This document shows positions 6,791 to 50,337 of a stretch of DNA of 64,000 nucleotides, in pieces. Location of the stretch: the NCBI GenBank assembly GCA_030698395.1, contig JAUYKW010000026.1, positions 12,797 through 76,796 of the forward strand, given 5' to 3'. The stretch's first letter is position 1. Each line of letters starts with the position of its first letter. Below the pieces are notes generated by a model. That model was given only the letters and a program-made list of their open reading frames with translations, was not told the origin of the DNA and did not search any database. Source of the stretch: a bacterium (GTDB taxonomy: Bacteria; Patescibacteriota; Patescibacteriia; UBA9570). The position numbers and the translations under genes are program-made.

Positions 6791-6968
6791 ATAATGATTA
6801 TAGCATAGTTATTAATTGTATCCGCATTCTAACCATTGACAAAACTGGTTTTTTAGTGTATGCTTCTTGCGCGTTAGTAGAGAAAGCTGCCATCCCGGTA
6901 GTAGTTCCTACCCAAGGAACTTGCTCTCTCCCCGAGAGTTTTTCTTCGAACCGCAGAAGGAAACACTG

Positions 6969-7238
6969 ATGCTGAAGTTGAATATGCTGTTCCGGAAGCT
7001 GATGGGCGCTGTGGCTTTTATCGGGTTCTTCCTGGTCGCCACCCTGGCGCCGGATGTCCCGGGTCACGAGATGTCCACTCTCGCCATGATCGTCGCCTAT
7101 GCGACTGGTCTGGCGATGATCATCATCCCCTTCGTCCTGAACTACTTCCTCGGCTGGGGATGGTTCGACGAGATGGAGAGCGACGACGAGATCGACACAA
7201 GGGAAGATCTCGAAACGAACGAGACCTGGTCGAAGTAG
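6969..7238 (+). CDS. small 2-TM membrane protein with acidic C-tail, on a high-GC islet
   Basis: SD AAGGA lies 7 nt upstream of the ATG at 6969. There are two hydrophobic helices, and the tail reads GWGWFDEMESDDEIDTREDLETNETWSK. A GC hairpin terminator follows. Local GC is far above that of the flanks. Confidence 0.5.
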   Translation: MLKLNMLFRKLMGAVAFIGFFLVATLAPDVPGHEMSTLAMIVAYATGLAMIIIPFVLNYFLGWGWFDEMESDDEIDTREDLETNETWSK

Positions 7239-7263
7239 ACCGAACCCCCGTCCGAAAGGGCTG

Positions 7264-7308
7264 CCGCCTCTGGAGATCGCGCGATGCGATCGTTTGTACA
7301 GAGGCGGC
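7264..7308 (+). terminator. GC-rich hairpin (GCCGCCTCTG ... CAGAGGCGGC) after the small TM gene
   Basis: 10-bp perfect stem read from the sequence. Confidence 0.45.
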
Positions 7309-7333
7309 GGCTACCCAACTTTTATATATTCCG

Positions 7334-7357
7334 ATTCCCAATTTGGGAATTTTTTTA
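7334..7357 (+). terminator. intrinsic terminator ATTCCCAA-T-TTGGGAAT followed by T7
   Basis: Perfect 8-bp stem followed by TTTTTTT. Confidence 0.5.
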
Positions 7358-7422
7358 TTTTCAATTTCGTGGATTGTTATAAATATATTTTCTTATTCTT
7401 TTTAATTCATATTCATTCCGAA

Positions 7423-7668
7423 TTATTCTGTCATGAAAACGTGGTTGCCATGCGAAATGATTCCAATTATTTTTATTACCCCATCTTGTAACTGCAGATT
7501 TATATGATCGAACAATTGTTGATATGGAATTTGATTTTGGTGAAACATTAGAATAAAAATTTTATTTGTTACAGAATCGTTTCGTTTTTGGGTAGAGACG
7601 TTGCATGCAACGTCTCTACGACGATCATTAATCACAATGATCCCGTGTACATGATTTGGCATTATCAC
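7423..7668 (-). pseudogene. degraded HUH (IS200/IS605 Y1 or RAYT-like) transposase fragment
   Basis: The ORF begins exactly at MPNHVHGIIVI (HuH motif). The upstream region and the catalytic Tyr region are missing. It contains a REP-like palindrome. The surrounding 7.3-7.7 kb is AT-rich junk. Confidence 0.35.
7592..7619. repeat. 28-bp perfect palindrome GTAGAGACGTTGCATGCAACGTCTCTAC (REP-like, variant centre)
   Basis: Shares GTAGAGAC/GTCTCTAC arms with the palindromes at 19348 and 25259. Confidence 0.6.
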
Positions 7669-7852
7669 AAATGCTCATTAATTAATATATCAAAAAATAC
7701 ATTTTATACAAAAAACCGCTCATTATAATATGAAGCGATCTTTCAAAAAAATTCTGGAGGAAGCCCATGTGTATGTCATGCTGGGAATGAACCCACACGA
7801 TCATGTTCACACGAGCAATCCTCGTTACTGGTTCACTACCGCGGCTGCGACT

Positions 7853-8029
7853 CTACCAGAGGTACGTATTCTCAGTCCGAGACCGATCTTCTGCGTCAGG
7901 ATCATTCTCTTTCGCGTAATCGTCTGCCCAGTCCTGAGCCACAGCACCCAAGACCTTCGCGAAGAAAATCATGGTACCCAGGGACGCAACGCTAGCGCCA
8001 ACTTGCGCCAGCAACACAACAACAGTCAT
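7853..8029 (-). CDS. small 1-TM membrane protein with acidic C-tail, on a high-GC islet
   Basis: GGAG lies 6 nt upstream of the ATG at 8029. The protein is MTVVVLLAQVGASVASLGTMIFFAKVLGAVAQDWADDYAKENDPDAEDRSRTENTYLW. The tail resembles that of the 6969 gene. Confidence 0.45.
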   Translation of the reverse strand: MTVVVLLAQVGASVASLGTMIFFAKVLGAVAQDWADDYAKENDPDAEDRSRTENTYLW

Positions 8030-8365
8030 CTTCAGCTCCACAATACGCAGGTTCTGGAAGGAACTGCGGTAGGATTAACGAGGATTGGCTATGTAGCCAA
8101 AAAAAATTTTACTATATTAATAATATTTGTCAATAGTATTTTTTAGATAAAAATAAAAAACGACCGGTTCTGATTTCAGCAATGGTCGTGAAAGCTACAA
8201 ATTCAGTTGTTAAGTTTATGGGTACCTGTGACATTCAAAATGATTATCACAGGCGTTCCTCCTTGCAGCGTCAACCGCCAGAACGAACTAGCCCGTGGTG
8301 CATCAGTTTGAAGCCGAAATAAATCGAGCTCCTAACATCATTACACCACGAGCATCGTCCCAGCT

Positions 8366-8512
8366 TTACTCCTTCGGCTTCAGTCGATTTTCTTCGTACA
8401 CCGGATCGGTCCGGGCCCGATACATCATGAATGCTGCCAGACCGAGCGAGCCACCGATGAAAACGGTAATCAGGAGCAGAGTTAACAGGGGCGAGTTCTC
8501 GATGAATGTCAT
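8366..8512 (-). CDS. small 1-TM membrane protein with charged C-tail, on a high-GC islet
   Basis: Strong SD GGAGGA lies 5 nt upstream of the ATG at 8512. The protein is MTFIENSPLLTLLLITVFIGGSLGLAAFMMYRARTDPVYEENRLKPKE. Confidence 0.5.
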   Translation of the reverse strand: MTFIENSPLLTLLLITVFIGGSLGLAAFMMYRARTDPVYEENRLKPKE

Positions 8513-8595: not shown

Positions 8596-9540
8596 GTGTC
8601 GTACAATAGTTATATGACTGTAAATAAATTAATTATAGAATTTCTAGAATACTTAGAAATTGAGCGCAATCGTTCTGCTCAAACTATTAAAAATTATGAT
8701 TATTACCTGAAAAGGTTCCTAAAACTTTCAAAAGTTAAAACTCCGCAAGATATTACTCAAGATAAGGTAAGAAAATATCGTCTACAATTAAACCGTATCA
8801 CCAACCCAAATACAGGAGAACCTCTTAAGAAAAAAACTCAAAATTATCACATGATTGCACTGCGAGCTTTTCTAAAGTATCTCGCTAAACGAGATATCAA
8901 ATCAATGGCAGCAGAAAAAATTGAATTAGCCAAACAAGAAGATCGTCAAATCGAATTTCTAGATGGTAGTGAACTTGAACGACTACTAGAAGCTCCACTT
9001 CAAGTAAAAGGTAATGAAATTATAAAATTACGAAATAAAGCAATCTTAGAACTGTTATTTTCTACAGGATTACGTGTTTCAGAATTAGCGCATTTAAAAA
9101 TTTCTGATATCAATTTAAAACGCGAAGAATTCTCTGTGCGTGGTAAAGGCGGTAAAGTAAGAATAGTATTTTTATCCGAACAAGCCAGATACTGGCTAAA
9201 AAAATATCTAGATAAAAGAACTGATATTTCGCCATACATGTTCGTTGCCCATGATCGCGCTCAATCAGCTCGTGAACAAACTGATAGCGCACCAATTACA
9301 TCACGATCCATTGAGCGTATGGTGAGTAAATATGCTAGAGTTGCCGGCATTATGAAAAAAATCACTCCACATACACTACGTCATAGTTATGCTACTGATC
9401 TACTACGTAATGGCGCAGATATTCGATCTGTTCAAAGTATGCTGGGTCACTCTTCTATTACCACAACTCAAGTTTATACTCACGTTACGGATCAACAATT
9501 AAAAAAGATCTATAAAAAATTCCACAACAAGAAGACATAG
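8596..9540 (+). CDS. tyrosine site-specific recombinase, XerC/XerD family
   Basis: R...HTLRHSYAT...GHSSITTTQVYTHV catalytic box. It lies next to the accessory junk region. Confidence 0.85.
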   Translation: MSYNSYMTVNKLIIEFLEYLEIERNRSAQTIKNYDYYLKRFLKLSKVKTPQDITQDKVRKYRLQLNRITNPNTGEPLKKKTQNYHMIALRAFLKYLAKRDIKSMAAEKIELAKQEDRQIEFLDGSELERLLEAPLQVKGNEIIKLRNKAILELLFSTGLRVSELAHLKISDINLKREEFSVRGKGGKVRIVFLSEQARYWLKKYLDKRTDISPYMFVAHDRAQSAREQTDSAPITSRSIERMVSKYARVAGIMKKITPHTLRHSYATDLLRNGADIRSVQSMLGHSSITTTQVYTHVTDQQLKKIYKKFHNKKT

Positions 9541-9560: not shown

Positions 9561-11324
9561 TTATAAAGTTTGGAGATAACGCAAAGCTTTATTTCCACCC
9601 ACTTTAAACCTGCCATCACCAGAACTTTTTAACACATTGCTTTTTTGAAAAATCTTTACTCGCATTTGCCCCACTCCTGTTAAATCCAAAAGTAAACTTT
9701 TCGCACGTTGAGTATTCCAATATGCGTACATATCATAATGGCCTTTATGAAATCTATACAAATATGCATCCGCTATTTTAGACGCATATAATTCATCTAT
9801 ATAAACCGTACCCTCTTCCAAGCTACCGTCTGCATCATCCAAAATAAATGAATCGAATGTTAATGGATAATCTAACTTACCGTCGTTATTACCGCCCCAA
9901 CTTCCTTGATAATTCTTAAGTTGGATTGTATAGAACAACCATTCTTTTGGCATGTATCCTAAGTTGTATTGAAATGTTTCACCTTTATTATCAGTTATTC
10001 TAACTCTTAAAGTTGTATCATCATTATCTCCCTTTACTTTAAATTGCAAAGCTTTAATCCTTCCTGGCAACTGCTTCTGTAATGCAATCGGAGCATAACA
10101 ATTACCATTTCCTGTAAAATTATAGTACACCTTCATTGTGCCTCCATCATGATCATCTAGAGCTCCACTAGTACATTCAGTTTCAGAAAAATGCCATCCC
10201 TTGCTGGAAACAAAATTATCAATAATTCTATATTCTGGTAAATTCATTCCTTCAAAGTACTTTCTATTCAAATTACGTTGCATAAATTTGTAGGCATGAT
10301 ATGCAGGCTTAGGTTTATACTCATGATCCACTAATCCAAATTGAGATTCTAAATAGGACTCATCCGCAGAAGAATCTGTCATGGTGTACCAAAATACTTT
10401 TTTTACATTTGGAATAGATAGTGCAATAGTGTAAAATCGCATTAAATATTTAGCCTGCATATTCTCTGTGATACCTCCAGAATAAGTTGTCCATCCAGCT
10501 TCCGTAATCCAAATTGGTGTATCAGTAAAACCGTGTTTATTCATTACTGCCTTAACATTATAAATGTCTACATATAACGGATTCAATCCAGCACCAGTAC
10601 GCTCTGGCATATAGTTAAAATTTCCATCGATAGTTCGGTAAGGATGTATAGCCACAACTTCAATATCCGATTTATCATCTACTTCTGAAAAAAATTCATC
10701 TAACCAAACAGCATCTGCTCCTGATACACCACCCAAAATTACTTTTGCATCTGGATTGGCAGATTTGATTTCATCTACTGCTGAAGAATAATAGGTTGCG
10801 TACTCTTTCAAGCTACCTTTCCAAAAACCTTCATGATTTGGCTCATTCCAGATCTCCCATGTATCAACAGATCCAGCATAATGCTCTGCAACTTTACCAA
10901 CGTAATCTTTCCAAGCATCTAAATCTGGCGGATAAAATTCTGAATCTGATGCGCCCGGATTTGTTGATGCCCACGAACTACTATATGTTAATAATCCTAA
11001 CATCTCAATATTTTTGTCCTGATACGCTTGAAGCACATTATCATAAGTAGTCCAATTATAATTACCGTCAGATGGTTCTATAACATCCCAATTAAATTGC
11101 TCTCTACCCCACTGAGCTCCTGTAGCCTCTACCTTTCCCAATACTGTATCCCAATCCGCCTCATCAACTCGCTCTCGCAAATGAACATTCACGCCAAAAG
11201 CATCTTTGATTCTATCTGAATTCGCTGAAGCAATGCCTGGCATAAATAGTATGCTAAATAACATACCTATAAATACTGGGGCTATGATAGATTTTATGCG
11301 CATAATTTTAATCTTTATAAGCAT
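9561..11324 (-). CDS. secreted clan GH-A (GH5-like) glycoside hydrolase with C-terminal extension
   Basis: Signal peptide, WEIWNEPN (acid/base Glu) and IWITEAGW (nucleophile Glu). The likely true start is the Met at 11303, which avoids overlap with cca. Confidence 0.7.
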   Translation of the reverse strand: MLIKIKIMRIKSIIAPVFIGMLFSILFMPGIASANSDRIKDAFGVNVHLRERVDEADWDTVLGKVEATGAQWGREQFNWDVIEPSDGNYNWTTYDNVLQAYQDKNIEMLGLLTYSSSWASTNPGASDSEFYPPDLDAWKDYVGKVAEHYAGSVDTWEIWNEPNHEGFWKGSLKEYATYYSSAVDEIKSANPDAKVILGGVSGADAVWLDEFFSEVDDKSDIEVVAIHPYRTIDGNFNYMPERTGAGLNPLYVDIYNVKAVMNKHGFTDTPIWITEAGWTTYSGGITENMQAKYLMRFYTIALSIPNVKKVFWYTMTDSSADESYLESQFGLVDHEYKPKPAYHAYKFMQRNLNRKYFEGMNLPEYRIIDNFVSSKGWHFSETECTSGALDDHDGGTMKVYYNFTGNGNCYAPIALQKQLPGRIKALQFKVKGDNDDTTLRVRITDNKGETFQYNLGYMPKEWLFYTIQLKNYQGSWGGNNDGKLDYPLTFDSFILDDADGSLEEGTVYIDELYASKIADAYLYRFHKGHYDMYAYWNTQRAKSLLLDLTGVGQMRVKIFQKSNVLKSSGDGRFKVGGNKALRYLQTL

Positions 11325-12726
11325 TTAAGTCTGCTAATGCAGAACGATACTCCTTCATAATAGCACGAGCATCACTTTCTGACATCTCTTTAAAATCATC
11401 TACCAAAGCTTCTGCTCGGCTAGTTAAAAACTCAGCAGTATTTCGTTTTGGATCTTCCAATACTTCATCCAACAAACGATGGAGCACAACACCTATTTTT
11501 GCACCTGGCTTCATGCCATATTTCTTCATTAATTCATTGCCATCAATAGCTAACATGCTAGTTGATATTGGATCTTTCTGAACATGTTCTATTCTTTGCT
11601 CTAGCTCTATTAATTTGTAAGGTTTTTCTTTGTACACGCCAGACCCCATACGATCGGCAATTCTAACTGCCATTAAATCTTCTAAATGTTCCACACCAAC
11701 ACGCTGTAACAATCGTCTAACTCCAGCATCAGTAATTTCACCAACATTGTAATAAAACATATGATGTTTAACTAAATGAAAAATTCTCTTAATATCGTTA
11801 TTAGAAAAATTCATCCGTCGCATAATTTGGCGGGCAATTTTTGCACTAACATGTTCGTGTTGATAGAAAGTTGCATCCCTCCCAGATCCCTCCTTCACTT
11901 CAGGCTTGCCAATATCATGAAATAAAGAAGCAAGTCGTACCTGCCAATCATCAGAGGGACAAAACTGCATGGCTAACAAGTTATGAGAGAAAACAGTATA
12001 AATATGATGCAAGTTCTGTTCTACACCAACGCAATTTTCTAACTCTGGTATGATAATTGCTAATAACCCACTAGTATGGAGCTGCCAAAAAGCTTTGTAT
12101 GAATCATCCGTAGAAACCATTTTAATAATCTCGTCCCGAATACGCTCTTGAGAAACATGTTTGATAAGTTCTGTATTTTTTACAATTGCCTGCCAAGTTT
12201 CTGCTTCAATGGCAAAACCTAACTGGCTACTAAAACGAATCGCGCGCAACATTCTTAAAGCATCTTCTTGAAATCGTTCATTTGCATCACCAACTGCGCG
12301 GATTAATTCTTTATCAATATCCAAAATGCCGGCAAATTTATCAACCAGCTCTTCGCCATCATAAGCAAGTGCATTAATAGTGAAATCTCTCCGTTCTACA
12401 TCTTCTTGTAATGATACGCCAAACTTCACCTCATCTGGATGACGATGATCTGTATAACCACCCTCACTTCGATATGTGGTTATTTCAATTTCAGCCTTAC
12501 CAATTTTAACTGTTACCGTACCAAAAGTATTCAAATACAGTGTTTTTGGAAAAATCTTCTGTATTTCATCCGGCAAAGCATTAGTAGTAACATCCCAATC
12601 CTTTGGTGTCCGCTGCATAATTAGATCACGCAAACAACCACCTACTACATAGGCTTGATGCTCATTTTGGTGTAATATCTGTAACACCTGTTGAACTTCT
12701 TTCGGTAAGCTGATAGTATAATCCAT
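11308..12726 (-). CDS. cca: CCA-adding tRNA nucleotidyltransferase with HD domain
   Basis: Pol-beta-type NTase N-terminus (GGCLRDL...DWDVTT) plus an HD motif (LFHDIGKP). Confidence 0.8.
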   Translation of the reverse strand: MDYTISLPKEVQQVLQILHQNEHQAYVVGGCLRDLIMQRTPKDWDVTTNALPDEIQKIFPKTLYLNTFGTVTVKIGKAEIEITTYRSEGGYTDHRHPDEVKFGVSLQEDVERRDFTINALAYDGEELVDKFAGILDIDKELIRAVGDANERFQEDALRMLRAIRFSSQLGFAIEAETWQAIVKNTELIKHVSQERIRDEIIKMVSTDDSYKAFWQLHTSGLLAIIIPELENCVGVEQNLHHIYTVFSHNLLAMQFCPSDDWQVRLASLFHDIGKPEVKEGSGRDATFYQHEHVSAKIARQIMRRMNFSNNDIKRIFHLVKHHMFYYNVGEITDAGVRRLLQRVGVEHLEDLMAVRIADRMGSGVYKEKPYKLIELEQRIEHVQKDPISTSMLAIDGNELMKKYGMKPGAKIGVVLHRLLDEVLEDPKRNTAEFLTSRAEALVDDFKEMSESDARAIMKEYRSALADLNAYKD

Positions 12727-12749
12727 ACTGTTATTACAGTATCACGTCG

Positions 12750-12821
12750 GTCCCTGTAGTTCAACGGATAGAACAACGGCCTTCTAAGCCGTGGATGTAG
12801 GTTCGATTCCTGCCGGGGACA
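12750..12821 (+). tRNA. tRNA-Arg (anticodon TCT)
   Basis: Manual cloverleaf: acceptor GTCCCTG/CGGGGAC, anticodon loop CUUCUAA, T-loop TTCGATT. CCA is not encoded. Confidence 0.85.
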
Positions 12822-13080
12822 CAATTAGAAATCAACACAATATAAAATCTCTATTCAGAGCATTCAAAAAACTGGATAAAAAATGGCAAAATATTGCATA
12901 ATATCAATTCTTTTGTTAAAATATTTTAGCTCTTTTTATTGTAAATCAATCTGGAAACAGAAACTAGAAAAGGTTAAATTAAAGCATGATACGACTTATC
13001 GTGGTATAAATATAGTCAGACAAAACTTCTTAAGTTCGTAGCCGAACAGAAAGGCAATTGAATAATTCTCAATGGCAATT

Positions 13081-13130: not shown

Positions 13131-13232
13131 TCTGAACAAGTTCTTGAAAACTCGAAATTGAACAGACAAGTAGCTAGTTAATAACACTAAGGCTTATCCG
13201 TTCAGTTTCGATCGATGTGAGAAACTGTTCGT

Positions 13233-13309
13233 GACAGGGTAGCTCAGCTGGTTAGAGCGCGGGACTCATAAGCCCGAGGTCGAGGGTTCAATCCCCTCTC
13301 CTGTCACCA
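13233..13309 (+). tRNA. tRNA-Met (CAT; elongator type or possibly Ile2-lysidine)
   Basis: Acceptor GACAGGG/TCCTGTC paired at 1:72, anticodon loop CUCAUAA, T-loop TTCAATC. CCA is encoded. Confidence 0.8.
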
Positions 13310-13310
13310 T

Positions 13311-13386
13311 GGTGGGCGTGGCGCAGTGGTAGCGCAGCGGCTTGTGGTGCCGTTGGTCGGGGGTTCGAATCCCCTCGTTCACCCCA
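13311..13386 (+). tRNA. tRNA-His (GTG) with encoded G-1
   Basis: Extra 5' G pairing with discriminator C73, anticodon loop UUGUGGU, T-loop TTCGAAT. CCA is encoded. Confidence 0.85.
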
Positions 13387-19347: not shown

Positions 19348-19387
19348 AAATAAGTAGAGACATGCCATGGCATGTCTCTACTTATTT
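19348..19387. repeat. 40-bp perfect REP-like palindrome AAATAAGTAGAGACATGCCATGGCATGTCTCTACTTATTT
   Basis: Perfect dyad verified base by base. It lies between convergent genes. Confidence 0.7.
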
Positions 19388-19416: not shown

Positions 19417-19992
19417 TTACAATCCTAGAAACACCCTCGCATATCCTACGGCTGTAGGATGTATACCAGCAAAGCCAGTTGCTAATGCTATAGCATCATC
19501 GTTGCCGTTATTATTCACATCTCCACATAAAATTAATGTTCCAAACAAACCATTTGAAATGGAAGATTTTTTATTTGACATTAATTTCGTTTTAAGCGAA
19601 TATTTAGCCACACTTTTTTCGAAATATGCCACCGCTTGTGTGATTCCTGTAAAGGAAACACCTAATGAGAGGACAGAGAGGTGATATTTTACAGAACATT
19701 GAGAGTCAGTGAAGCTACGGCTGCTTGGGCATACGGCATGGCCAGGCTCCGAACCCGTAAGCGAGAAACAGTCATCAATCCGAGGGACAACATCAGCACC
19801 TGCACGATCCACCGATCCGGACCGTCTAGTGCCGTCCTGATGCAGATCCCAAGGAGAAGAAACGCAACTCCGGTACGGTACCACCTGCACCTTCGAGTGT
19901 ACTCCCACCGTGGAGAACTGCTGGTGCGGAGTATTCTGGCCGACAGCGCCAGAAGCATTCCGAAAGTGAGGAGGAACAAGACCCGAGAACAT
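19417..19992 (-). CDS. uncertain chimeric ORF: AT-rich 3' part (dockerin/FG-GAP-like GDVNNNGNDD) fused to a high-GC 5' part
   Basis: Composition switches abruptly around 19650. The high-GC part (19680-20040) has overlapping ORFs on both strands. Confidence 0.25.
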   Translation of the reverse strand: MFSGLVPPHFRNASGAVGQNTPHQQFSTVGVHSKVQVVPYRSCVSSPWDLHQDGTRRSGSVDRAGADVVPRIDDCFSLTGSEPGHAVCPSSRSFTDSQCSVKYHLSVLSLGVSFTGITQAVAYFEKSVAKYSLKTKLMSNKKSSISNGLFGTLILCGDVNNNGNDDAIALATGFAGIHPTAVGYARVFLGL

Positions 19993-20043
19993 CCTGCACC
20001 AATGGATTTCTCGGGTCGTGTTCTTATTTGCTATAATTAAGGC

Positions 20044-23813: not shown

Positions 23814-23935
23814 AGTAATAGCATAACATACCTAAAAACATTGACTAGGTAATCCAAAACTAGTAATGTGTTGGGCACGATCTGTACATTTCACCGCCCA
23901 AATATTACAAAAGGGCACAAACCGAGAGGATTCTC

Positions 23936-26392: not shown

Positions 26393-26580
26393 ATGTTTAT
26401 AAATCCAATATTTATCAATAAAATTACTAACAAATATACCCTATAATAGGGCTTTTGTCAATACCTAAAGCATAAATAGATAACTTCCGGCCAATAAGAA
26501 CCATATATGATTCGCATTGGGGGAAGACGGAACCAGCTGTTTGAGAGCGTAATTCCGTCTGCCGTGTCCTCCTCACGGCA

Positions 26581-27012
26581 TCATGCCGACTGTTGGCACG
26601 TGAACACGAAGTGCGTCCTGTCCCATTTCACTTCCAGTCTGGTACCGACCTGAATGTTCAGCTCATCTCGAATCCTGCTGGGAATCGTCAAACGACGCTG
26701 ACCGTCCGTATTTACGGGTTCACCAGCGAAGGCCTGAACTCCGTCCAGAATCCGACCAGCCGGCGTCTGGACCATCTCGATCCACTCGGACATAGGAAAC
26801 ACATGGAGTGAACCATCCCGGAACGAAGTCATGTAGAACGTTTCGTCCGGTCCGTACTCTCCGTACAGTGGATTCATGAAGTGATTGGCAAGCATCAGAC
26901 GACCCTTCTGATCGACTGTCGCAGTTCGGACACCAAAAATATAAACACACATCTTGCACATCCTCCTCTTCTGTTGGGTGCAGAAACTCCCAGGGGACGG
27001 GAGTAGTTCCAA
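26581..27012 (-). CDS. MraZ-like protein (orphan, high-GC)
   Basis: Two DxxGR-type motifs (VDQKGRLMLANHF and TDGQRRLTIPSRIRDEL). The likely start is near 26952-26961. It is not adjacent to mraW. Confidence 0.5.
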   Translation of the reverse strand: MELLPSPGSFCTQQKRRMCKMCVYIFGVRTATVDQKGRLMLANHFMNPLYGEYGPDETFYMTSFRDGSLHVFPMSEWIEMVQTPAGRILDGVQAFAGEPVNTDGQRRLTIPSRIRDELNIQVGTRLEVKWDRTHFVFTCQQSA

Positions 27013-27084
27013 GGGATAGGAACGTCGTTGATGCCACAGTGGCCCCTATAGATTAAAGACCATATACGGCCTTGTCAACACAAA

Positions 27085-41505: not shown

Positions 41506-41772
41506 ATTTTTACTTCTGGCTTATAAAAATAACTAGACAAGATACACTTTTAATACATAAATGTCAATTCCTTTCTAACCACTATATTATATCAACTTGA
41601 CCAGAAAATATACATCGTGTAGTATTTTTAAGCTGATTATACAGCGTGGCCCGTTCGCCCGCCTGCAACGCTTTGCGTAGCGTAGCGTAGCAATGCGGGC
41701 AGGTCTAGTTAATCCTTTCGCAACAATTCATAATTAAATTACGTTTTGTTGTGAACGGATTAGAGCAAAAAT

Positions 41773-42018: not shown

Positions 42019-42021
42019 CAT

Positions 42022-42093
42022 GGCCCGTTCGTCTAGTGGTTAGGACATCAGGTTTTCATCCTGAAAACAGGGGTTCAATTCCCCTACGGGCTA
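42022..42093 (+). tRNA. tRNA-Glu (anticodon TTC)
   Basis: Acceptor GGCCCGT/ACGGGCT (G1-U72), anticodon loop UUUUCAU, T-loop TTCAATT. Confidence 0.75.
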
Positions 42094-42190
42094 CATGGAA
42101 AAATTCACGTCTGAAAGACGTGGATTTTTATTAAATTGGATTTTTTCTCTTACCTATGTTACTGTCTTTATGATTAGCATAAGCACTGAA

Positions 42191-42901: not shown

Positions 42902-43036
42902 TTTTTTTCATCTGTTTTAACTACAACATATCACTTTTTTTGTTCTCTTTCTACGAAGAGAAAATCATATAAATTGATTAAATAACTGTTAGAATGTTAT
43001 ACTTTTTATAATTATTATTGCTAAATAAAAACTAAT

Positions 43037-44953
43037 ATGAGAAAATTTTTCTTCTACCTCATAAGCATTTCAATAGGACTATTTGCGTTTACAGCATCTG
43101 CACAAGCAGCTGCAACGCTAAATGGTACCATACACGATATTAATGGCGATGTTATCACAGGTACATCTTGCGTAACATATACAGTTTCTGGAACGGATAC
43201 TGACACAGGAACCATAACTACTAATGGTACTTTTAGCGCAACGGTAAATGGTGGTGAAATATATACGATTGCATTTAGTTCAGCCACAACAGACTGTATT
43301 CCAGTAGAGCGAACACAACGCTCTTATTATTTGACGAACGGGAATACAATAGATGATAATTTCTATTTGGATGTTCCCGAAAGAAGAGGAAGAATTCGTG
43401 GAAAAGTCGTAAATGCCAGAAAAGATAATGTACCTATCGATGACATAGAAGTTAGAATCTATGGTGAAGACGCAGAAGAAATAACATCCAACTACAATAC
43501 AACTACAAATAGTACAGGTAATTTTAATACAACAGTACCTGTTGGCAATTACGACATTGTTATTAAAGTAAATAATGATAAACCATGTCCTTTAGAATCT
43601 GATAGTGAGCTATGGTTCGAAACTAAATGTTATGATTACGTATTACTAGACCAAGAAATTTCTGCTGGTGAAGATCTTAATTTAGGAACAGTTAACTTCA
43701 CCGGTGGTGATGATTTAACAGTTTTCTATATAACGAAACGTAATAGTCAGGGAAATTTTGACTACATTAACTTTGATCAACTATATGTAATAGCTCACTC
43801 AAATTCTGGTAAGCTTATTCAATATGCAACTAGTGGTGCAACTCTTCTTGGTAATACCGCCTTTGGACGTATCATACAATCCGACACACAACCTTATGCA
43901 AGCTTTGTCCTAGATGCTGATGAAGATTGGACATTTGATGCTTTCGCTATCGAAGGAACAAAAGCATATCACGGTGTCTTATCTTTAAATGCAGAGCAAA
44001 TCCCAGAAGTTGATTGGACAGAACCAAGATTGAATGAACCCAATCAAAGAGGAAATGCAGGACAAGCAGACATTCTTGTTAGTGAAGTTTACACCTACGA
44101 TGCTACTGCAGGAGTTGATGTAACGTTTAATTCAACTACGGCTAGAACAATAAATTCTAGCGATGGTCTACCAACTGGTACTGAAGTAGTGATACCTGCT
44201 TATGCAATTGATGATGGTGGAAATGTAAATGTTGTCATGGAACCAGCGTTCGATATCCTTACACCTCAATATCCACTTAATGGCTTCTCCTGGAATTTAA
44301 CAGCTTATGACAACATTAATGAAACTGTTAGCGAATTCAACAGACCAATCACTATCACTTTACCTTATGATGAAGCAGAACTTGTGGTATTAGGAGTTAA
44401 TGAAAGCGATGTTCAGCCTTGGTACTATAATGAAACTTCTGAAAGATGGAAAAGAGTTCCAACACCAAATGTAACTGTTGATACTGTGGCTAATACAGTA
44501 ACATTTACAACTTATCATTTTTCTCAATATGGTTTACTAGCAGACCGAATAACAGACTTGGATATCGAATACACAATGGGTAATGCAAAAAAGCAAGTTC
44601 GCGCTACACCCAGAAAAGTACGCAAAGTCCGCATAGATGAACTTACGTATGATGCCGTTAATAATAACGTAAAGATGAGAGTTTCCTGGCAGCACAAAAA
44701 AAGAAATAATGGTTATTTAGTAGATGTTATTAAAGTAAATAGCAATGACAGGGTTGTTAGAAAAAATAAAGAAAGAAATAAAAAAACCAAACTGGACAAA
44801 AGAATGCATGTCAAATTTAAAAACAGTTCTGGTTTAAAAACAAATAAAACCTACAGATTAAGAGTGAAAGCATATAAATGGGTTCATAGTAAATATATAT
44901 ACGGCAAGTGGAGTAAAAAGATAAAATTCCATACACCGGAAAAACCAGTATAA
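43037..44953 (+). CDS. large secreted Thr/Asn-rich surface protein with C-terminal basic FN3-like region
   Basis: Signal peptide ending ASAQAA and repetitive beta-rich composition. Confidence 0.55.
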   Translation: MRKFFFYLISISIGLFAFTASAQAAATLNGTIHDINGDVITGTSCVTYTVSGTDTDTGTITTNGTFSATVNGGEIYTIAFSSATTDCIPVERTQRSYYLTNGNTIDDNFYLDVPERRGRIRGKVVNARKDNVPIDDIEVRIYGEDAEEITSNYNTTTNSTGNFNTTVPVGNYDIVIKVNNDKPCPLESDSELWFETKCYDYVLLDQEISAGEDLNLGTVNFTGGDDLTVFYITKRNSQGNFDYINFDQLYVIAHSNSGKLIQYATSGATLLGNTAFGRIIQSDTQPYASFVLDADEDWTFDAFAIEGTKAYHGVLSLNAEQIPEVDWTEPRLNEPNQRGNAGQADILVSEVYTYDATAGVDVTFNSTTARTINSSDGLPTGTEVVIPAYAIDDGGNVNVVMEPAFDILTPQYPLNGFSWNLTAYDNINETVSEFNRPITITLPYDEAELVVLGVNESDVQPWYYNETSERWKRVPTPNVTVDTVANTVTFTTYHFSQYGLLADRITDLDIEYTMGNAKKQVRATPRKVRKVRIDELTYDAVNNNVKMRVSWQHKKRNNGYLVDVIKVNSNDRVVRKNKERNKKTKLDKRMHVKFKNSSGLKTNKTYRLRVKAYKWVHSKYIYGKWSKKIKFHTPEKPV

Positions 44954-45048
44954 GAGAATAAATAAAGAGGTGTCTAAAATAGTCACCTCTTTTGTTACCA
45001 AAAAAAATATCCTTGCATTAATTATCGAGGATCAGTATAATATATTTA

Positions 45049-45591
45049 ATGGCGACTAAACATAAAGAGTTCAAAAATAAAATAAAAGATCTACAAACGG
45101 AGGACTTCGAGCATCCAGAAGATTTTTTTAGTCGTGCGCATGAACTAAACGAATCCAGCGCTCAACCAGGAACTCTATATACAGACGAAACTCCACCATC
45201 TCAAAGATTAACCAATGCAGATGAAATGTGGATTGATGCTAGCAATGAAGGCTATGAAGGGCAACTTGCTATTGATGTTTACCAAGACGACAAATTTTTA
45301 TATGTAAAAGCAATCGTTGGCGGTGTACCACCAGATGATATTGAAATACACCTAAACAATGATATGTTAACAATCAAAGGAAAACGATCTCAGCCTGATA
45401 TGGGTATAGACCCAGAGAATTATTATATTCAAGAATGTTACTGGGGTGGTTTCTCTAGATCCGTAATCCTACCTGTAGATATCCAAAACGAACAAGTTGA
45501 AGCAATTACAGAGAATGGTGTACTCACAATTACTCTACCAAAATCAAATCGACCAAAAAACGCAAGAATTCCGATTAAGGAAATAAAGTAG
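45049..45591 (+). CDS. Hsp20/alpha-crystallin small heat-shock protein
   Basis: Alpha-crystallin domain with the GVLTITLPK C-terminal motif. Confidence 0.85.
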   Translation: MATKHKEFKNKIKDLQTEDFEHPEDFFSRAHELNESSAQPGTLYTDETPPSQRLTNADEMWIDASNEGYEGQLAIDVYQDDKFLYVKAIVGGVPPDDIEIHLNNDMLTIKGKRSQPDMGIDPENYYIQECYWGGFSRSVILPVDIQNEQVEAITENGVLTITLPKSNRPKNARIPIKEIK

Positions 45592-45747
45592 CAATCGTTT
45601 AGAACCAGGAGGGTACAAAGATTAATATTTTGTTAACGAGCGCTGTGTCGAAATGCATACTGCGCTATTTAATATTGACGTTTTTCCCGATTACTGGTAA
45701 ACAGGTCTAGTTACAAATAATAATAAATACAGAAAGTGTAAAAAATA

Positions 45748-47784
45748 ATGACAAATCAAGAATCAAAAAAGAAACAACCTCCAGTTGATGAGAAGAAATC
45801 TACAGAAAAAAAGGTTATTGAAGAACAACCTACAGAAAAAACATCTCCTGAAAAAAAGAAATTCCCTATCAAAAAAACTCTTGGCATTATCGCCGGAAGC
45901 ATCGTCGTGCTTATACTACTTATTATTGTTGGTTATTTTATTTATGAATACACCTACCAAGATAAAATTTATCCAGGCGTAACGTTAAACAATGAAGACA
46001 TGTCTGGAAAAACCTATTCAGACATAACTAGTGAAATAAATACCTATAAAGCATCATTAGATAATACAGGTTTAAATTTTAGCTACGAAGAAAAAGAATA
46101 TTCTATCAAACCACAAACAAAGGATGAAGAAAGTGGTGATATTATGTATTTAGTTAATATTAATACTGACGAAACAGCACAGGCAATATATGGTATAGGT
46201 AGAAGCGATGATGAGCAAACAAATCTAAAAAACAAAGTTAGTGCTTTATTTGGTGGGTATGACGTTACACCAAATTATTCTGTAGATAAAGAAACACTGA
46301 TAGCGTTATTGAGTAACGAATTCAGTGAATTCGAACAACCAGATGAAAATGCTAAACTTAGTTTTTCAGAAAACGGTGAAATACAAATTAGTGACCATAA
46401 AGATGGCTACACTTTTGATTGGGAATCATATCTGGATGAAGTGGAAAGCAATTTAAACAGTTTTGAACCTGTTAATATTAAGCTAGAACTTACTGCTAAT
46501 CCTGCACCAATTACTACGGAAACTGCCGAAAATATGCGTACCGAAATTGAGGCTATCTCAGATCTCTCTCCAATAACACTTACTTATGAAGATCAAACAT
46601 TTGAAATTGAAAGTGAAGAATTTAATTCTTGGTTAATGCTCACAGAAAATGGAGTTAGTTTTGATGAAGAACTTGTTGATTCATCACTCGATACTATTGC
46701 AGGTAAAATTGATATTCCCGTTAAAGAAGGACGCTTTAGCTTAGACATAGTAAACGATGTGGTGGAACTAACTCAATTCGAAGAAGGCGCTGATGGACTG
46801 GAAGTAAATATCGAAAAAACCATTACAGAAGTAAACGCATCAATTCTTGATAATAAACAAAGTAAATCAGAGCTTATAGTTGAAGTGACAACTCCCCGCG
46901 TAACACCAGGCAACCTAAACGAACTAGGAGTTAAAGAAATCTTAGGAACCGGAACTACTAGCTTTGCCGGAAGCCCATATAACCGTATTGGTAATATTCA
47001 AAAAGGTGCAGATTTATTAAATGGTTTGTTAATAGCCCCTGGAGAAACTTTCTCATTAATGAAATTACTATCACCAGTTGATATTGCTCATGGTTGGCTT
47101 TCAGAATTAGTTATTAAAGGAGATAAATTGGAAAAAGAAGCTGGCGGTGGGCTATGCCAGATTGGTACAACGGTTTTTAGAGCAACTATGATGTCTGGAT
47201 TAGAAGTAGTAGAACGACGTAATCATTCTTGGGCAGTATCATATTATAATTACAATGGAAAAGCTGGAGTTGATGCAACCATTTATGAACCATCTCCTGA
47301 TTATAAATTTAAAAATGATACTGAAAATTATATATTGATCCGTAGTAGAATAGAAGGTAGTGATATATACTTTGAATTCTGGGGTACATCTGATGGTAGA
47401 AAAGGTAGCTTTACTGAGCCTACAAACTACGGCTATGTATATCCTGGTCCAACCGAAGAAATAGTTGATCCTAGTTTACCGCCGGGTGCCAGAAATTGTC
47501 CTACTCATGCTTTTACCGGAGTTAGCGCATCATTTGATTATATTATTGAACGTCCAGATGGTTCCATAGACACAACTAATTACACTAGTGTATACAAATC
47601 ACGATCTGCCGTGTGTATGGTTGGTCCAGAAGCTGAAAAAACACCTACTGAAGAAACTACTCAAGATATTACTGAAACAGTCGACACAACGACTCCAGTT
47701 GTAACTCCGGAAGTTGATGTTCCTACCGAAACAACAAAAGATACAACTAAGAAAGATACGACAAAAAAGAAAAAGAAGAATTAA
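45748..47784 (+). CDS. VanW-domain protein with N-terminal TM anchor
   Basis: GGGLCQIGTTVFRA VanW signature. Confidence 0.7.
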   Translation: MTNQESKKKQPPVDEKKSTEKKVIEEQPTEKTSPEKKKFPIKKTLGIIAGSIVVLILLIIVGYFIYEYTYQDKIYPGVTLNNEDMSGKTYSDITSEINTYKASLDNTGLNFSYEEKEYSIKPQTKDEESGDIMYLVNINTDETAQAIYGIGRSDDEQTNLKNKVSALFGGYDVTPNYSVDKETLIALLSNEFSEFEQPDENAKLSFSENGEIQISDHKDGYTFDWESYLDEVESNLNSFEPVNIKLELTANPAPITTETAENMRTEIEAISDLSPITLTYEDQTFEIESEEFNSWLMLTENGVSFDEELVDSSLDTIAGKIDIPVKEGRFSLDIVNDVVELTQFEEGADGLEVNIEKTITEVNASILDNKQSKSELIVEVTTPRVTPGNLNELGVKEILGTGTTSFAGSPYNRIGNIQKGADLLNGLLIAPGETFSLMKLLSPVDIAHGWLSELVIKGDKLEKEAGGGLCQIGTTVFRATMMSGLEVVERRNHSWAVSYYNYNGKAGVDATIYEPSPDYKFKNDTENYILIRSRIEGSDIYFEFWGTSDGRKGSFTEPTNYGYVYPGPTEEIVDPSLPPGARNCPTHAFTGVSASFDYIIERPDGSIDTTNYTSVYKSRSAVCMVGPEAEKTPTEETTQDITETVDTTTPVVTPEVDVPTETTKDTTKKDTTKKKKKN

Positions 47785-47842
47785 TCATAAACAAAATCGT
47801 ATCTACTATTTATTGTGTCGTTTTTAATTTTTAGTTTCAAAA

Positions 47843-47957
47843 ATCCCCGAAGTCTGTAGGCAAGAGAACTTGCGGAAGGGATGCATAGAGCTTGCGCCTT
47901 ATATATCCTTCCTACACGTTCCCATGCTCGTCGTGCCTACAGGAGTCAGGGATTTTT
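47843..47957 (+). repeat. large nested inverted-repeat element (24-nt arms AAAAATCCCCGAAGTCTGTAGGCA / TGCCTACAGGAGTCAGGGATTTTT) ending in a U-run
   Basis: Arms pair with 3 mismatches. An inner GGAAGGGAT...ATCCTTCC hairpin is present. It sits at the left edge of the largest high-GC island. Confidence 0.4.
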
Positions 47958-48193
47958 GCTTTTAAATTTATGCCGATCGAATACAAATTATTCAAACGAC
48001 CAAATAGTATAGCGGACTCTTGCCTATTTGTCAAGAGGTATGATAAAGCCAAGCATCAATAATGTACGTATTTAAGCTAACATTAGCAAAATTCTATGTT
48101 TTTAAACTCTTTATAAGAACGTATCAATAAATACGAACTTGACTCATATCTAGTTATTCACTACGGTGATGGTCCGGTTGCACTCATAGCTAT

Positions 48194-48721
48194 GTGTGCG
48201 ATGACTGGGCCTTGAAAAACACTCACGAAGCCACTGTGCTTCTAGCGGAGACGAAATTGCAGACCGACGCCCCAACCCCTGACCTCACCCCCCGCCCTCA
48301 GAACTCTACGAAGACGCTCCCGACCGCACAGATCATCGCCGAAATCGTGATGGCTACTGGCGAAGACCGCAACCGCCTCGTGGTCATGCTGGCCATCGAG
48401 ATCGAGCTCCGGCGGATCGCGTACGAGCTGCTCACGCTCGCGCCGAACAAGATCCACGACGTCGGACAGCTGACCCCCTGCTTGGAACAGGCCGAAGCAC
48501 TGGACGAACTGATCCTCAAGCACCAGCTCGATGAGCGTGTGACCGACGTGATCGTACTGCTCGATGAGCGTGTGACCGACTCGTCAACCATCATCCGGGC
48601 CGCGAACATGCTCGCCCAGGCCGCGAACCGGATCGCGACGCAGGCCAAGGAGGTGGCGGATGATCTGCGCAAGGATCGCCTCAAGCCCCCCGAGCCGTTC
48701 GTAGCGATCAACGGCTGCTGA
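48194..48721 (+). CDS. high-GC hypothetical helical protein, member A of a tandem paralog trio
   Basis: DRNRLVVMLAIEIELRRIA segment is shared with member B. It contains a 21-bp direct duplication (LDERVTD twice). Confidence 0.45.
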   Translation: MCDDWALKNTHEATVLLAETKLQTDAPTPDLTPRPQNSTKTLPTAQIIAEIVMATGEDRNRLVVMLAIEIELRRIAYELLTLAPNKIHDVGQLTPCLEQAEALDELILKHQLDERVTDVIVLLDERVTDSSTIIRAANMLAQAANRIATQAKEVADDLRKDRLKPPEPFVAINGC

Positions 48722-49002
48722 CTCACAAGTCAACCGGACAGGAGGAGTTCCGGACGAAATCACACTAGCAGGCATGGTAGCAATACCCACCCGCAAAGAG
48801 ATCTCGTCCGGTACCCCGCACACAATCTTTTTCAACATCTTCAACTTATTTCATCTATTCCAAGACGCGATAAATCGCGTCTTTACTCTTTTTCAATACA
48901 TACTGCCCTTGACTTTAGGGTCTTTTTTTACTACGGTTGTAGCCTGGTCGCAAGCAAATGTAACCAGATTCCACTGAAACTCTCACCTCCAAAGGAGCAG
49001 AA

Positions 49003-49434
49003 ATGCGCCTTCCCTCCGCGGCAAGCACCATGCTTCGCTGTCACCGCCTTCTCGCCAAGATCGAGCTCACCGACCACAACCGCACCCTGCAGTTGTGTGC
49101 CATCCCGGCACTTCAGGTGGAGCTCTACCGCATTGCGTCTATGATGACGCGACGCGAAGATGTGAGACCTGAACAGGTTCACAAGATTCTCAAGGAGATT
49201 CGCGATATCGTGACTCTCGCCGAAACGCACCAAATGCTGATCGGCAATACGAATGAAATCGAAGATCTCCTCAACCAAGCTGAGGTCCGCGAACTGGCAT
49301 GGTCCGTTGTTCGGCACCTGGTCACCAATGCGATCGATGCATTGGACCTGTACGCTGATCAACTGGACGCCGACGTGGACGTCGAGCTACTGAGTATCGG
49401 CATGATGGCACTCGCTCCGAGTGTCCACGCCTGA
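49003..49434 (+). CDS. high-GC hypothetical helical protein, member B of the paralog trio
   Basis: DHNRTLQLCAIPALQVELYRIA aligns with member A. Confidence 0.45.
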   Translation: MRLPSAASTMLRCHRLLAKIELTDHNRTLQLCAIPALQVELYRIASMMTRREDVRPEQVHKILKEIRDIVTLAETHQMLIGNTNEIEDLLNQAEVRELAWSVVRHLVTNAIDALDLYADQLDADVDVELLSIGMMALAPSVHA

Positions 49435-49746
49435 TCATGCTCAGCTATGGTAGCTCTCCTCCTCCAGAGGGCTAGGCTCCAAGCCATCCGGGGAAGAGTG
49501 TTCGCTGATTCTGCACCGTGCAGGAACATCGACGCTCTCCCCGGATCCTACCCCCCCTGTATATGTAAACCAACTAAATTGCATATAGAGGAAAGAAAAT
49601 AACCCAACAATCGGGTTATTTTTTATTACTAAAAAACATTATTATCAGGTCTCAAATGATTGACAATTACCCTATTTTACATTACGGTTATGGGGCTTTT
49701 CAGTTTGTAAACATCCCATTTCGGGACAATAGAGAGGACCAAATAG

Positions 49747-50166
49747 ATGACTGACCAGTACCTGTCGTGGGCGAGAAATGCTTTGCGGAGCACAGATGAG
49801 AACCTGCGTATCGCATCTACCGTGCCGAACCTGAACACGAACTTTGTCAGACGACTCCTCGTGAGTCGTAACCAGATCAACGTCTTCCTGACCGGTCCGC
49901 TCACGCAGCCGGGACTGGTGACGTTCGACCTGCACATCACCTGCCAGGAAGAACTGGCTGATCTGGTCGCCAAGTTGCTGCACATCTTCGAAGACATCGG
50001 CCACGAGGACATGCTCGAGGCGCAGTATGTGAGCGGCCTGCTCACTTCGGCCGTCGGGCAGACCACAGTCGCTTCAGCACTCTTGCAGAAGGCTCTGCGA
50101 GACGGCGAGGAGATCAAGAAGGTCGAGTCCATCGAAGGACCGTCGATCTGGTCCGCTGGTTGCTGA
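49747..50166 (+). CDS. high-GC hypothetical protein, member C (more distant)
   Basis: Same strand, size and composition as A and B, with weak TDENLRIA similarity. A GC hairpin plus T-run follows at about 50283-50305. Confidence 0.4.
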   Translation: MTDQYLSWARNALRSTDENLRIASTVPNLNTNFVRRLLVSRNQINVFLTGPLTQPGLVTFDLHITCQEELADLVAKLLHIFEDIGHEDMLEAQYVSGLLTSAVGQTTVASALLQKALRDGEEIKKVESIEGPSIWSAGC

Positions 50167-50337
50167 AAAGCGCCACCCGCGGAGGACGGGAATCCAGGGT
50201 GGAACGACTGCAACAAGCATCGTTCTCCCTGGCCCCACCCACACTTGAAATAATTCCTCTTTTTATCTATAATATATTAACAGCGCGCCACTTGGGCGCT
50301 TTTAATTTCATAATTATTCACTTAATTAAAAGTACAT

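Follow-up and report, generated by a model that had tools for sequence, protein, structure and literature searches.

Short GC-rich gene islands in the AT-rich genome of a Kerfeldbacteria-like Patescibacterium: a resident gene class rather than freshly captured host DNA?

The stretch of DNA under study, hereafter the window, comprises 64,000 nucleotides (nt) of contig JAUYKW010000026.1 from a very small groundwater bacterium of the candidate phyla radiation (CPR), in which short GC-rich islands interrupt an AT-rich backbone. Sliding-window GC analysis combined with a two-state hidden Markov model (HMM) over the whole window delimits ten segments of 53-61% GC (I1 to I10), which together amount to 5,353 bp, or 8.4% of the window, within a backbone of 34.8% GC; a 300-nt interval with at least 50% GC lies more than five binomial standard deviations away from this backbone. 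A preliminary description of this DNA, made from the letters alone, had listed eight such segments and proposed that they were acquired from a high-GC donor; its first seven segments are recovered here, and its last block turns out to be three separate islands. The analysis shows that the islands are real, coding and clade-restricted, that they lie in conserved slots, are incongruent with the backbone in phylogeny, and combine saturated synonymous sites with the resident strand skew; recent capture from a high-GC host is probably not their origin. Elsewhere in the window, GC-rich sequence is confined to a tRNA-Met/His pair (13230-13385) and a 64-nt hairpin of 67% GC (41642-41705), which lies upstream of a tRNA-Glu gene (42022-42094) and has neither a tRNA nor an Rfam match. 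The islands are listed below with their coding sequences (CDS) or open reading frames (ORFs), product lengths in amino acids (aa), GC content at third codon positions (GC3), notable untranslated regions (UTRs), and promoters written as -35 box, spacer length and -10 box; related loci are referred to by L numbers.

6836..6864, plus strand: promoter-like site of I1, TTGACA-17-TATGCT, in AT-rich DNA and 5 nt ahead of the GC-rich segment
6869..7316, plus strand: island I1, 57% GC, delimited by the HMM
7754..8073, minus strand: island I2, 54% GC; CDS 7853-8029, 58 aa, GC3 0.59
8248..8501, minus strand: island I3, 54% GC; CDS 8366-8512, 48 aa, GC3 0.67
19701..20020, minus strand: island I4, 57% GC; best ORF 19689-19979, minus strand, 96 aa
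22126..22529, minus strand: island I5, 53% GC; CDS 22137-22547, 136 aa; promoter-like TTGACC-17-TAATAT at 22624-22596
23841..23869, plus strand: promoter-like site of I6, TTGACT-17-TAATGT; homologous promoter and 5' UTR start in L002, L010 and L063
23913..25203, plus strand: island I6, 57.5% GC; CDS 23936-25111, 391 aa; GGAGG-bearing hairpin region in the 3' UTR
26513..27046, minus strand: island I7, 54% GC; CDS 26581-26952/26961, about 123-126 aa
48139..48167, plus strand: promoter of I8, TTGACT-17-TACGGT
48164..48823, plus strand: island I8, 61% GC; CDS probably 48257-48721, 154 aa, TTG start
48909..48937, plus strand: promoter of I9, TTGACT-17-TACGGT; upstream TCAATAnATAC and 5' UTR start homologous to those of I8
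48934..49559, plus strand: island I9, 57% GC; CDS 49003-49434, 143 aa; long GC hairpin in the 3' UTR
49660..49688, plus strand: promoter of I10, TTGACA-17-TACGGT
49749..50244, plus strand: island I10, 59% GC; CDS 49747-50166, 139 aa; 3' hairpin with GGAGGA

In each island there is a single ORF, whose codon positions differ in GC as those of GC-rich coding genes do (GC at second positions, GC2, 0.34-0.51); coding periodicity is clear in nine of the ten, and GC3 exceeds both GC1 and GC2 in nearly all of them, I2 and I5 being marginal. The GC3 of the island genes ranges from 0.59 to 0.83, against 0.25±0.04 (range 0.15-0.38) in 55 backbone genes, i.e. z = 8-13.5, which bears out the earlier observation of short GC-rich islands in a low-GC genome and the impression that they look compositionally foreign: they are accessory genes of atypical composition. 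The elevation is not limited to third positions but extends to the first and second, to amino-acid usage and to the UTRs. The Arg/Lys ratio is 2.4 in the islands and 0.62 in the backbone, the codon choices of the islands are opposite to those of the backbone, and GC1, GC2 and GC3 match an equilibrium at 55-65% GC, not a half-ameliorated state. Sliding-window GC revealed no gradient in the backbone genes flanking the islands, and the AT-rich spacers among I8, I9 and I10 have about 28% GC, as estimated from the sequence. Over positions 42056-56800 of the window (14,745 bp), all the junctions of I8 to I10 included, the sequence agrees 100% with an independent Logan assembly (SRR13727534); since two assemblies agree across these junctions, the mosaic is no assembly artefact. 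Rfam, at gathering and E-value thresholds, and ARAGORN found four tRNAs in the window and nothing inside the islands, and by ARAGORN no island in the window abuts a tRNA.

Three islands carry Pfam domains, and the MraZ-like, purine-nucleoside phosphorylase and class-IV aminotransferase contents proposed earlier were all confirmed by domain searches. I5 contains a fragment of a purine-nucleoside phosphorylase gene, covering model positions 74-194 of 274. I7 encodes a DNA-binding protein of the MraZ/AbrB (SpoVT) fold according to Pfam, behind a promoter TTGACA-17-TAATCT at 27078-27050, and a hairpin with an AGGAGGA loop stands directly after its stop codon. The product of I6 matches PF01063 (Aminotran_4) at 6.4e-12, above the cut-off of that model, and branched-chain aminotransferases (BCATs) of the PDB at 2e-11, and every equivalog model scores far below its cut-off. 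Five homologues share its K183 without exception, within a KAAGNY motif, and in our reading this residue aligns with the catalytic lysine of BCATs. To judge from these matches, the protein is a divergent fold-type-IV pyridoxal-phosphate enzyme, distantly related to BCAT; the family that it forms with its homologues is called AT4 hereafter. The products of I8 to I10 are helical proteins of 139-154 aa without a family match. That of I8 is predicted to be alpha-helical; its TTG start was inferred because the region from the Shine-Dalgarno (SD) sequence to the start is homologous with that of I9, and its 3' hairpin with a AGGAGGAG loop is followed by an AT-rich terminator at about 48861-48885. The AlphaFold model of the I9 product is all-helical, with six predicted helices, at low confidence (pLDDT 57), and that of I10 is an ORFan, whose sole match among 5.8 billion proteins is itself. 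Between a VanW-like gene and I8 lies an imperfect long hairpin of 140 nt (47826-47965, minimum free energy -48 kcal/mol), which has no Rfam match and may represent either a small RNA or a terminator of elaborate form.

Islands I1 to I3 are predicted to encode three small membrane proteins with charged tails. The I1 protein (CDS 6969-7238, 89 aa, GC3 0.83) has two transmembrane helices and an acidic tail, that of I2 one such helix and an acidic tail, and that of I3 one helix. A structured 5' UTR of 98 nt precedes the I1 CDS, and a 14-bp GC hairpin (about 7259-7313) and then a canonical AT-rich terminator (7333-7360) follow it; I2 has a promoter TTGACA-16-TAAAAT at 8133-8106, and I3 a GGAGGA SD sequence 5 nt upstream of its CDS. 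These three resemble type I toxin-antitoxin genes, which are likewise intergenic and stand-alone, with hydrophobic products (48-89 aa here), long, strongly structured mRNAs and poor conservation. Type I systems, however, have an antisense RNA partner, none of which was identified from the sequence for I1 to I3, and genes of the island class code in addition for a DNA-binding protein, for helical soluble proteins and for an enzyme of 391 aa. Directly next to this cluster lies the gene (8596-9540) of a Xer-type tyrosine recombinase, which scores 142 with TIGR02249, the cut-off of which is 265, and about 245 with the XerC, XerD and XerA models; it is probably the housekeeping enzyme of dimer resolution.

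The island hardest to classify is I4. Its best ORF encodes three hydrophobic segments with 12 Arg and no Lys and shows weak codon periodicity (GC1/2/3 0.55/0.51/0.63), and Rfam yielded no match in it. It may specify a three-helix membrane protein, but because a terminator-like hairpin lies on the plus strand at about 19980-20030, its coding strand, or an RNA product in place of a protein, is uncertain.

The expression signals of the islands set them apart from the backbone. Eight of the ten islands, as compared with 22% of backbone genes, are preceded by a near-consensus promoter in AT-rich DNA, which has a -35 box with at least five of six matches to TTGACA, 16-17 nt spacing and a -10 box of the form TAnnnT. 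The GC-rich tract usually spans a 5' UTR of 50-100 nt together with the CDS, and for five of these eight promoters no more than about 5 nt separate its onset from the -10 box. A strong GC hairpin follows the stop codon in seven islands (there is none for I4 and I5, and that of I3 lies further downstream), with a canonical AT-rich terminator coming next in at least five of the hairpin-ended units. The promoter TTGAC-N17-TACGGT has three matches in the window, where 0.07 are expected, all of them upstream of I8 to I10. I8 and I9 in addition have upstream sequence, 5' UTR start and SD-start region in common, and their proteins are about 25% identical and both genes GC-rich; from this pattern they look like tandem duplicates that diverged in place while remaining GC-rich. 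An SD-like GGAGG lies 7-19 nt after the stop codons of I6, I7, I8 and I10 (25119-25123, about 26568-26572 on the minus strand, 48741-48745 and 50181-50185), i.e. four occurrences in 1000 nt against a shuffle mean of 0.84 (P ~0.01). It sits in a small hairpin loop in I7, I8 and I10, it is kept after the AT4 orthologues of L002 (~1855), L009 (~5938), L010 (~8562) and L060 (~2945), and I9 has the complementary CCTCCTCC in its place. No downstream ORF was found after any of these 3' GGAGG sites, and no repeats or boundary motifs are common to the islands of the window except the I8-I10 promoter and the GGAGG 3' motif. Full transcripts fold more stably than their dinucleotide shuffles, with z-scores from -3.9 (I4) through -4.5 (I1) to -5.9 (I9), and when only the CDS is shuffled among synonymous codons the mean z is -1.13 in the islands against +0.05 in the backbone (P = 0.02).

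Four copies of a near-perfect palindrome of 28 nt, resembling repetitive extragenic palindromes (REPs), lie in AT-rich intergenic DNA at 7592-7619, 19354-19381, 23226-23253 and 25264-25291, with the sequence GTAGAGAC(A/G)T..CATG..GTCTCTAC and one variant, GTAAGGAC...GTCCTTAC; they are probably bidirectional terminators. Three islands had been said to abut such palindromes; the four palindromes do exist, but only that at 25264-25291 lies within about 60 nt of an island end.

The backbone identifies the organism. Among 24 loci of relatives retrieved by the backbone DHH-family protein, the closest named ones belong to metagenome-assembled genomes (MAGs) of Candidatus Kerfeldbacteria, with proteins 62-66% (DHH) and 70-74% (PilB) identical to those of the window, and several relatives that are just as close bear a generic 'uncultured' label in the database. 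Identities to the window of 62-66% in DHH and 71-74% in PilB are also found in MAGs whose records carry the title 'uncultured Gammaproteobacteria bacterium' (e.g. L005, L007, L008 and L010); on such Kerfeldbacteria-like backbones these titles look like generic or mistaken labels. Farther relatives of the backbone are Uhrbacteria, Magasanikbacteria and other Patescibacteria. Its housekeeping genes include those for polynucleotide phosphorylase (PNPase), CCA-adding enzyme, valyl-tRNA synthetase (ValRS), TsaD, RuvB, PilB and Xer. The earlier assignment to a CPR bacterium thus holds, the backbone matching Patescibacteria, as does the PilB ATPase at 30388, which is confirmed as T2SSE/PilB. The Saccharibacteria-type cell does not hold, since the DHH and PilB relatives make the backbone Kerfeldbacteria-like, and an actinobacterial host is therefore unsupported.

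Single-gene GC islands also occur in these relatives: four in L009, four in L019, and others in L010, L011, L014, L016 and L025. Their products include an M17 peptidase, methyltransferases, cyclic nucleotide monophosphate (cNMP)-binding proteins, lipoproteins and small or proline-rich membrane proteins. When GC3 is expressed as the difference from the locus median, 253 genes of 19 loci show a bimodal distribution, with about 10% at +0.30 to +0.55 and very few at +0.15 to +0.30. In L063 (1-5451) five of six genes are of the GC class, namely three paralogous cNMP-binding protein genes, a gene for a 147-aa protein and an AT4-like gene, and they surround one backbone gene of 42% GC (CDP-alcohol phosphatidyltransferase); GC-class genes therefore form larger blocks in some relatives.

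AT4 serves as the tracer family. I6 gave three word-index matches, itself included, in 5.8 billion proteins and, when 1.84 billion representatives were scanned exhaustively, six matches below 1e-30, and all named or context-checked members of the family are Patescibacteria in mosaic contexts. A metagenome scan with the AT4 alignment returned generic IlvE genes only, at about 25% identity, and was uninformative. The AT4-like gene adjoins the same methyltransferase gene, upstream of a DHH-PilB block, in the window and in L002, L009, L010 and L060; it stands beside the CDP-alcohol phosphatidyltransferase gene in L063 and elsewhere in the genome in L065/L066, and is absent from L005, L006, L007 and L012. 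In seven Kerfeldbacteria-like relatives it forms a GC island, of 59-65% GC in six and 53% in L064, with GC3 of 0.68-0.92 in surrounding backbones of 35-48% GC (context of 40-52% in L064); the more distant Patescibacterium L061 has a 28%-identical homologue of ordinary composition. At four-fold degenerate sites the window copy is 0.25-0.43 identical to its type-A relatives, where saturation would give 0.27-0.33, and the GC content of these sites (GC4) is nevertheless 0.67-0.92 in all five copies. Because the sites are near saturation and still GC-rich, the high silent-site GC of AT4 would represent a stationary state and not a fading relic, provided that the divergence occurred in genomes like those of the present carriers.

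Comparison of close relatives shows what is kept and what changes at these positions. Between L002 and L009 the DHH protein is 96% identical (86% at the nucleotide level), whereas the AT4-like proteins are 35% identical and have no nucleotide similarity; yet the 70 nt directly after the AT4 stop codon, which bear the GGAGG hairpin, are 96% identical, and the two AT4 types still have a recognisably similar promoter and 5' UTR start. The counterparts in L060 of the I5 and I7 slots contain other GC-rich genes, of GC3 0.96 and 0.81 and related to neither I5 nor I7, one M17-like and one for a lipoprotein. L009 carries between DHH and PilB an insertion of 1.9 kb (11155-13070) with three GC-rich membrane-protein genes, which is absent from L002 and all other relatives; a 60-nt hairpin element follows each of two of its cassettes (11783-11850 and 12921-12985) and occurs nowhere else in the fetched loci. 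The slots and their regulatory flanks are thus conserved, and it is the cargo that has been replaced, has hyper-diverged or has been newly inserted. High-GC genes are accordingly syntenic in low-GC relatives, a situation that the preliminary description had set against its own proposal, although their descent is not strictly vertical.

A further indication of long residence comes from strand skew. Third positions of the backbone are biased towards C over G on the plus strand regardless of gene direction. The coding-sense GC3 skew of the islands runs from +0.11 to +0.36 in the five on the minus strand and from 0 to -0.30 in the five on the plus strand, a complete separation (two-sided rank test, P ~0.008, our own calculation, n = 10). 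That the sign is the same as in the backbone points to long exposure of the islands to the local replication-linked mutation asymmetry. Transcription-strand-specific mutagenesis of the kind caused by diversity-generating retroelements or deaminases was considered and rejected, as there is no consistent depletion of A or T on the coding strand and the asymmetry follows the replication strand. Of the repeated acquisition proposed earlier, gain and replacement of genes stand (the L009 insertion and the AT4 swap between L002 and L009), whereas recency is contradicted by saturation and skew.

The account that we favour, and to which we give about an even chance, is that the islands are a clade-specific, fast-evolving class of accessory genes in fixed slots whose GC-richness is actively maintained. 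According to this account, the ten islands would be resident, monocistronic, protein-coding units of a class typical of Kerfeldbacteria-like Patescibacteria, with slots fixed between AT-rich housekeeping genes and a cargo that evolves very fast, changes by exchange or replacement from one lineage of the clade to another, and is joined occasionally by new cassettes. Both the active maintenance of the GC level and its force are inferred. The high GC would be held stationary against the AT-biased drift of the genome, and the force that we favour is selection on the transcripts, which would preserve mRNAs of great stability and extensive structure, because the GC-rich tract tracks the transcript, the spacers are AT-rich and there is no flanking gradient; stable messages might suit a cell unable to make its own nucleotides. 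Alternatively, the force may be GC-biased fixation tied to recombination at hypervariable loci. GC-biased gene conversion, which has been proposed for bacteria and underlies the isochore model in vertebrates, would likewise produce a local, long-lived rise of GC3 at recombining loci, affecting synonymous sites, non-synonymous sites and UTRs alike. The elevation of GC3 by 0.35-0.55 and its sharpness of less than 50 nt, however, go far beyond the effects reported for bacteria, no flanking gradient accompanies them, and AT-rich spacers persist between adjacent islands. Among known systems, the enterobacterial O-antigen (rfb) and capsule loci, which encode hypervariable surface antigens and have persistently atypical GC, are similar in their fixed slot, their divergent alleles exchanged via conserved flanks and their long-lived atypical composition. 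These loci, on the other hand, are multi-gene, AT-richer than the genome and devoted to glycan pathways, whereas the islands are single genes, GC-richer, scattered over many slots, and encode small membrane proteins, lipoproteins and enzymes.

Several points weigh against this account. The folding excess of the CDS is modest, the large z-scores coming mostly from UTR hairpins; and promoters are AT-rich by nature, so that the coincidence of GC onset and transcription start is partly trivial. AT4 is the only family of the window that was traced across genomes, the M17 peptidase family being found in the relatives alone; of the ten islands, the large protein database searches covered I5, I6 and I10; and the number of islands in the skew test is small (n = 10). 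I5 holds part of a gene, the nearest relatives of which occur in ordinary high-GC bacteria, and by these features it looks like decaying foreign DNA and not a selected gene. Moreover, as the AT4 tree is incongruent and cassettes have demonstrably been gained, the divergence could have taken place in an unsampled GC-rich reservoir.

A continuing horizontal influx from a groundwater community of mostly higher GC, and not from a host in particular, with DNA inserted at permissive intergenic hot spots, trimmed by deletion to one useful gene and lost or replaced before it ameliorates, would require no maintenance of GC at all; we regard it as possible, though on the unlikely side. Donors to a genome of 35% GC tend to be GC-richer, the islands are patchy (AT4 is missing from the four loci named above), L009 has a recent gain of 1.9 kb, and the bimodal GC3 without intermediates is compatible with rapid turnover. 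The islands also resemble the genomic islets at hot spots of horizontal gene transfer (HGT) in groundwater Patescibacteria, where composition-based islands and HGT make up as much as 13% of the genomes (PMC12455944): both have deviant composition and codon usage, patchy occurrence and gene trees incongruent with the backbone (that of AT4 in our case), and both lie between core genes with gain and replacement at the same positions. Unlike such islets, the islands are single transcription units of 0.25-1.3 kb, GC-richer than the host, and lack mobility hallmarks (no integrase, no flanking direct repeats, no tRNA target, the sole recombinase being the Xer-type enzyme beside I1-I3) as well as an identifiable donor. 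They also differ in amelioration, for AT4 remains GC-rich at saturated four-fold sites and few genes have intermediate GC3. The nearest relatives of the I5 fragment that were examined, at 46-47% identity, are on contigs of ordinary bacteria with uniformly 63% GC, as an influx would have it; but no donor-like sequence was found for I6 and I10 in 5.8 or 1.84 billion proteins, same-sample assemblies included, and AT4 is confined to mosaic contexts of CPR genomes. The resident skew, the conservation of promoter, 5' UTR and 3' hairpin around different alleles, and the duplication of I8 and I9, diverged in place, also argue against it. The earlier idea of material from a high-GC donor is in line with these relatives of I5, but none of the island genes tested has a close one in a high-GC organism: the I6 family, in its named or context-checked members, is restricted to Patescibacteria, I10 matches itself alone, and the best relatives of I5 are at most 47% identical and come from mixed phyla.

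It is unlikely, in our estimate, that the islands stem from an unsampled GC-rich CPR reservoir, i.e. a plasmid, a phage or a high-GC Patescibacterium, from which cassettes are delivered at conserved flanks by site-specific or homologous exchange. This would account for the conserved AT4 flanks (5' UTR start and 3' GGAGG hairpin) around a swapped CDS, for the repeated 60-nt hairpin after two cassettes of the L009 insertion, and for the block in L063, where five GC-class genes surround one backbone gene of 42% GC, and a Xer-type recombinase gene does adjoin I1-I3. However, mobile DNA is usually AT-richer than its host. No viral loci were found for I6, I8 and I9, no plasmid or phage DNA matched the I6 island or the I8-I10 block, and PHROG and PADLOC gave no meaningful matches, only a weak antitoxin match for I7, so that an origin from a phage, a plasmid or a defence system was rejected. 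The window islands have no common boundary motif, and a uniformly GC-rich context was seen for no AT4 relative examined. Integron cassettes, including clusters of attC sites lacking integrases (CALINs) and single attC sites, are comparable in being single-ORF units with a hairpin, exchangeable cargo rich in ORFans and a tyrosine recombinase nearby. They are, however, promoterless, co-oriented, arrayed and attC-ended, whereas the islands have their own promoters and mixed orientations and are dispersed. An integron or CALIN was rejected on these grounds and because the recombinase is XerC/D/XerA-like and scores below the integron-integrase (IntI) cut-off; no attC-like core or R''/R' consensus was seen in the 3' hairpins, though no dedicated attC covariance model was run. 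Influx and reservoir both explain gain, replacement and the I5 fragment, and both struggle with the endemic, saturated AT4 family, the resident skew and the in-place divergence of I8 and I9.

Repeated capture of actinobacterial host DNA through competence pili by a Saccharibacteria-type epibiont, the undescribed mode of gene capture suggested initially, is very improbable. The organism is indeed a CPR bacterium encoding a PilB/T2SSE ATPase, the islands have a foreign-like composition, and Kerfeldbacteria have been reported to be strongly host-attached (PMC7906910). But the backbone is Kerfeldbacteria-like and its relatives are groundwater-type MAGs, and none of I5 (at most 47% identity, mixed phyla), I6 (Patescibacteria only) and I10 (an ORFan) has a close donor. 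Synonymous saturation and resident skew oppose recent capture, and the island GC3 of 0.59-0.83 is below the value of about 0.9 that is typical of Actinomycetota. Assembly chimeras, or structured RNA genes rich in GC, are hardly credible as an explanation of the islands, for although GC-rich islands in AT-rich genomes are classically RNA genes, and I4, with its weak periodicity, plus-strand terminator and fold z of -3.9, is ambiguous, the junctions are identical in two assemblies, the same phenomenon is found in many MAGs of different studies, island boundaries match gene units, and Rfam and ARAGORN find only four tRNAs where nine of ten islands have ORFs with GC3 periodicity and three have Pfam domains.

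The account of a resident gene class with maintained GC can be given a bolder form, which we hold to be rather unlikely as a whole. In this form, Kerfeldbacteria-like CPR bacteria would keep a second compositional class of genes, about one tenth of the total, whose whole transcripts are held at 55-65% GC by selection in 'expression sockets', each made of a strong promoter and a 3' hairpin displaying GGAGG. The sockets would carry interchangeable, hyper-variable genes, for the most part those of small membrane or surface proteins and in a few cases those of enzymes, and the unusually structured, long-lived mRNAs would serve an episymbiont auxotrophic for nucleotides. The boldest version has these messages or genes tuned to the translation system of a GC-rich host.

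Under standard theory a foreign-looking composition fades with residence time, and island callers therefore read atypical DNA as recent transfer. The island genes of this clade remain 20-25 points GC-richer than their surroundings although their synonymous sites have turned over. For groundwater Patescibacteria, islands called from composition and extensive HGT have already been reported (PMC12455944). Our literature searches uncovered no account of persistent GC-rich islands of single genes in CPR genomes, nor of the combination seen here, i.e. transcript-sized single-gene islands, GC-richer than the genome, in conserved slots with conserved flanks, and atypical beyond synonymous saturation. 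If their GC content is actively maintained, compositional calls of HGT in CPR genomes would be partly misread, and the islands would offer a tractable natural case for weighing selection against biased conversion in bacterial GC content. The GC-class genes, with their small membrane proteins, lipoproteins, divergent pyridoxal-phosphate enzyme and regulators, would then also be prime candidates for the fast-evolving host-interaction repertoire of these uncultured episymbionts.

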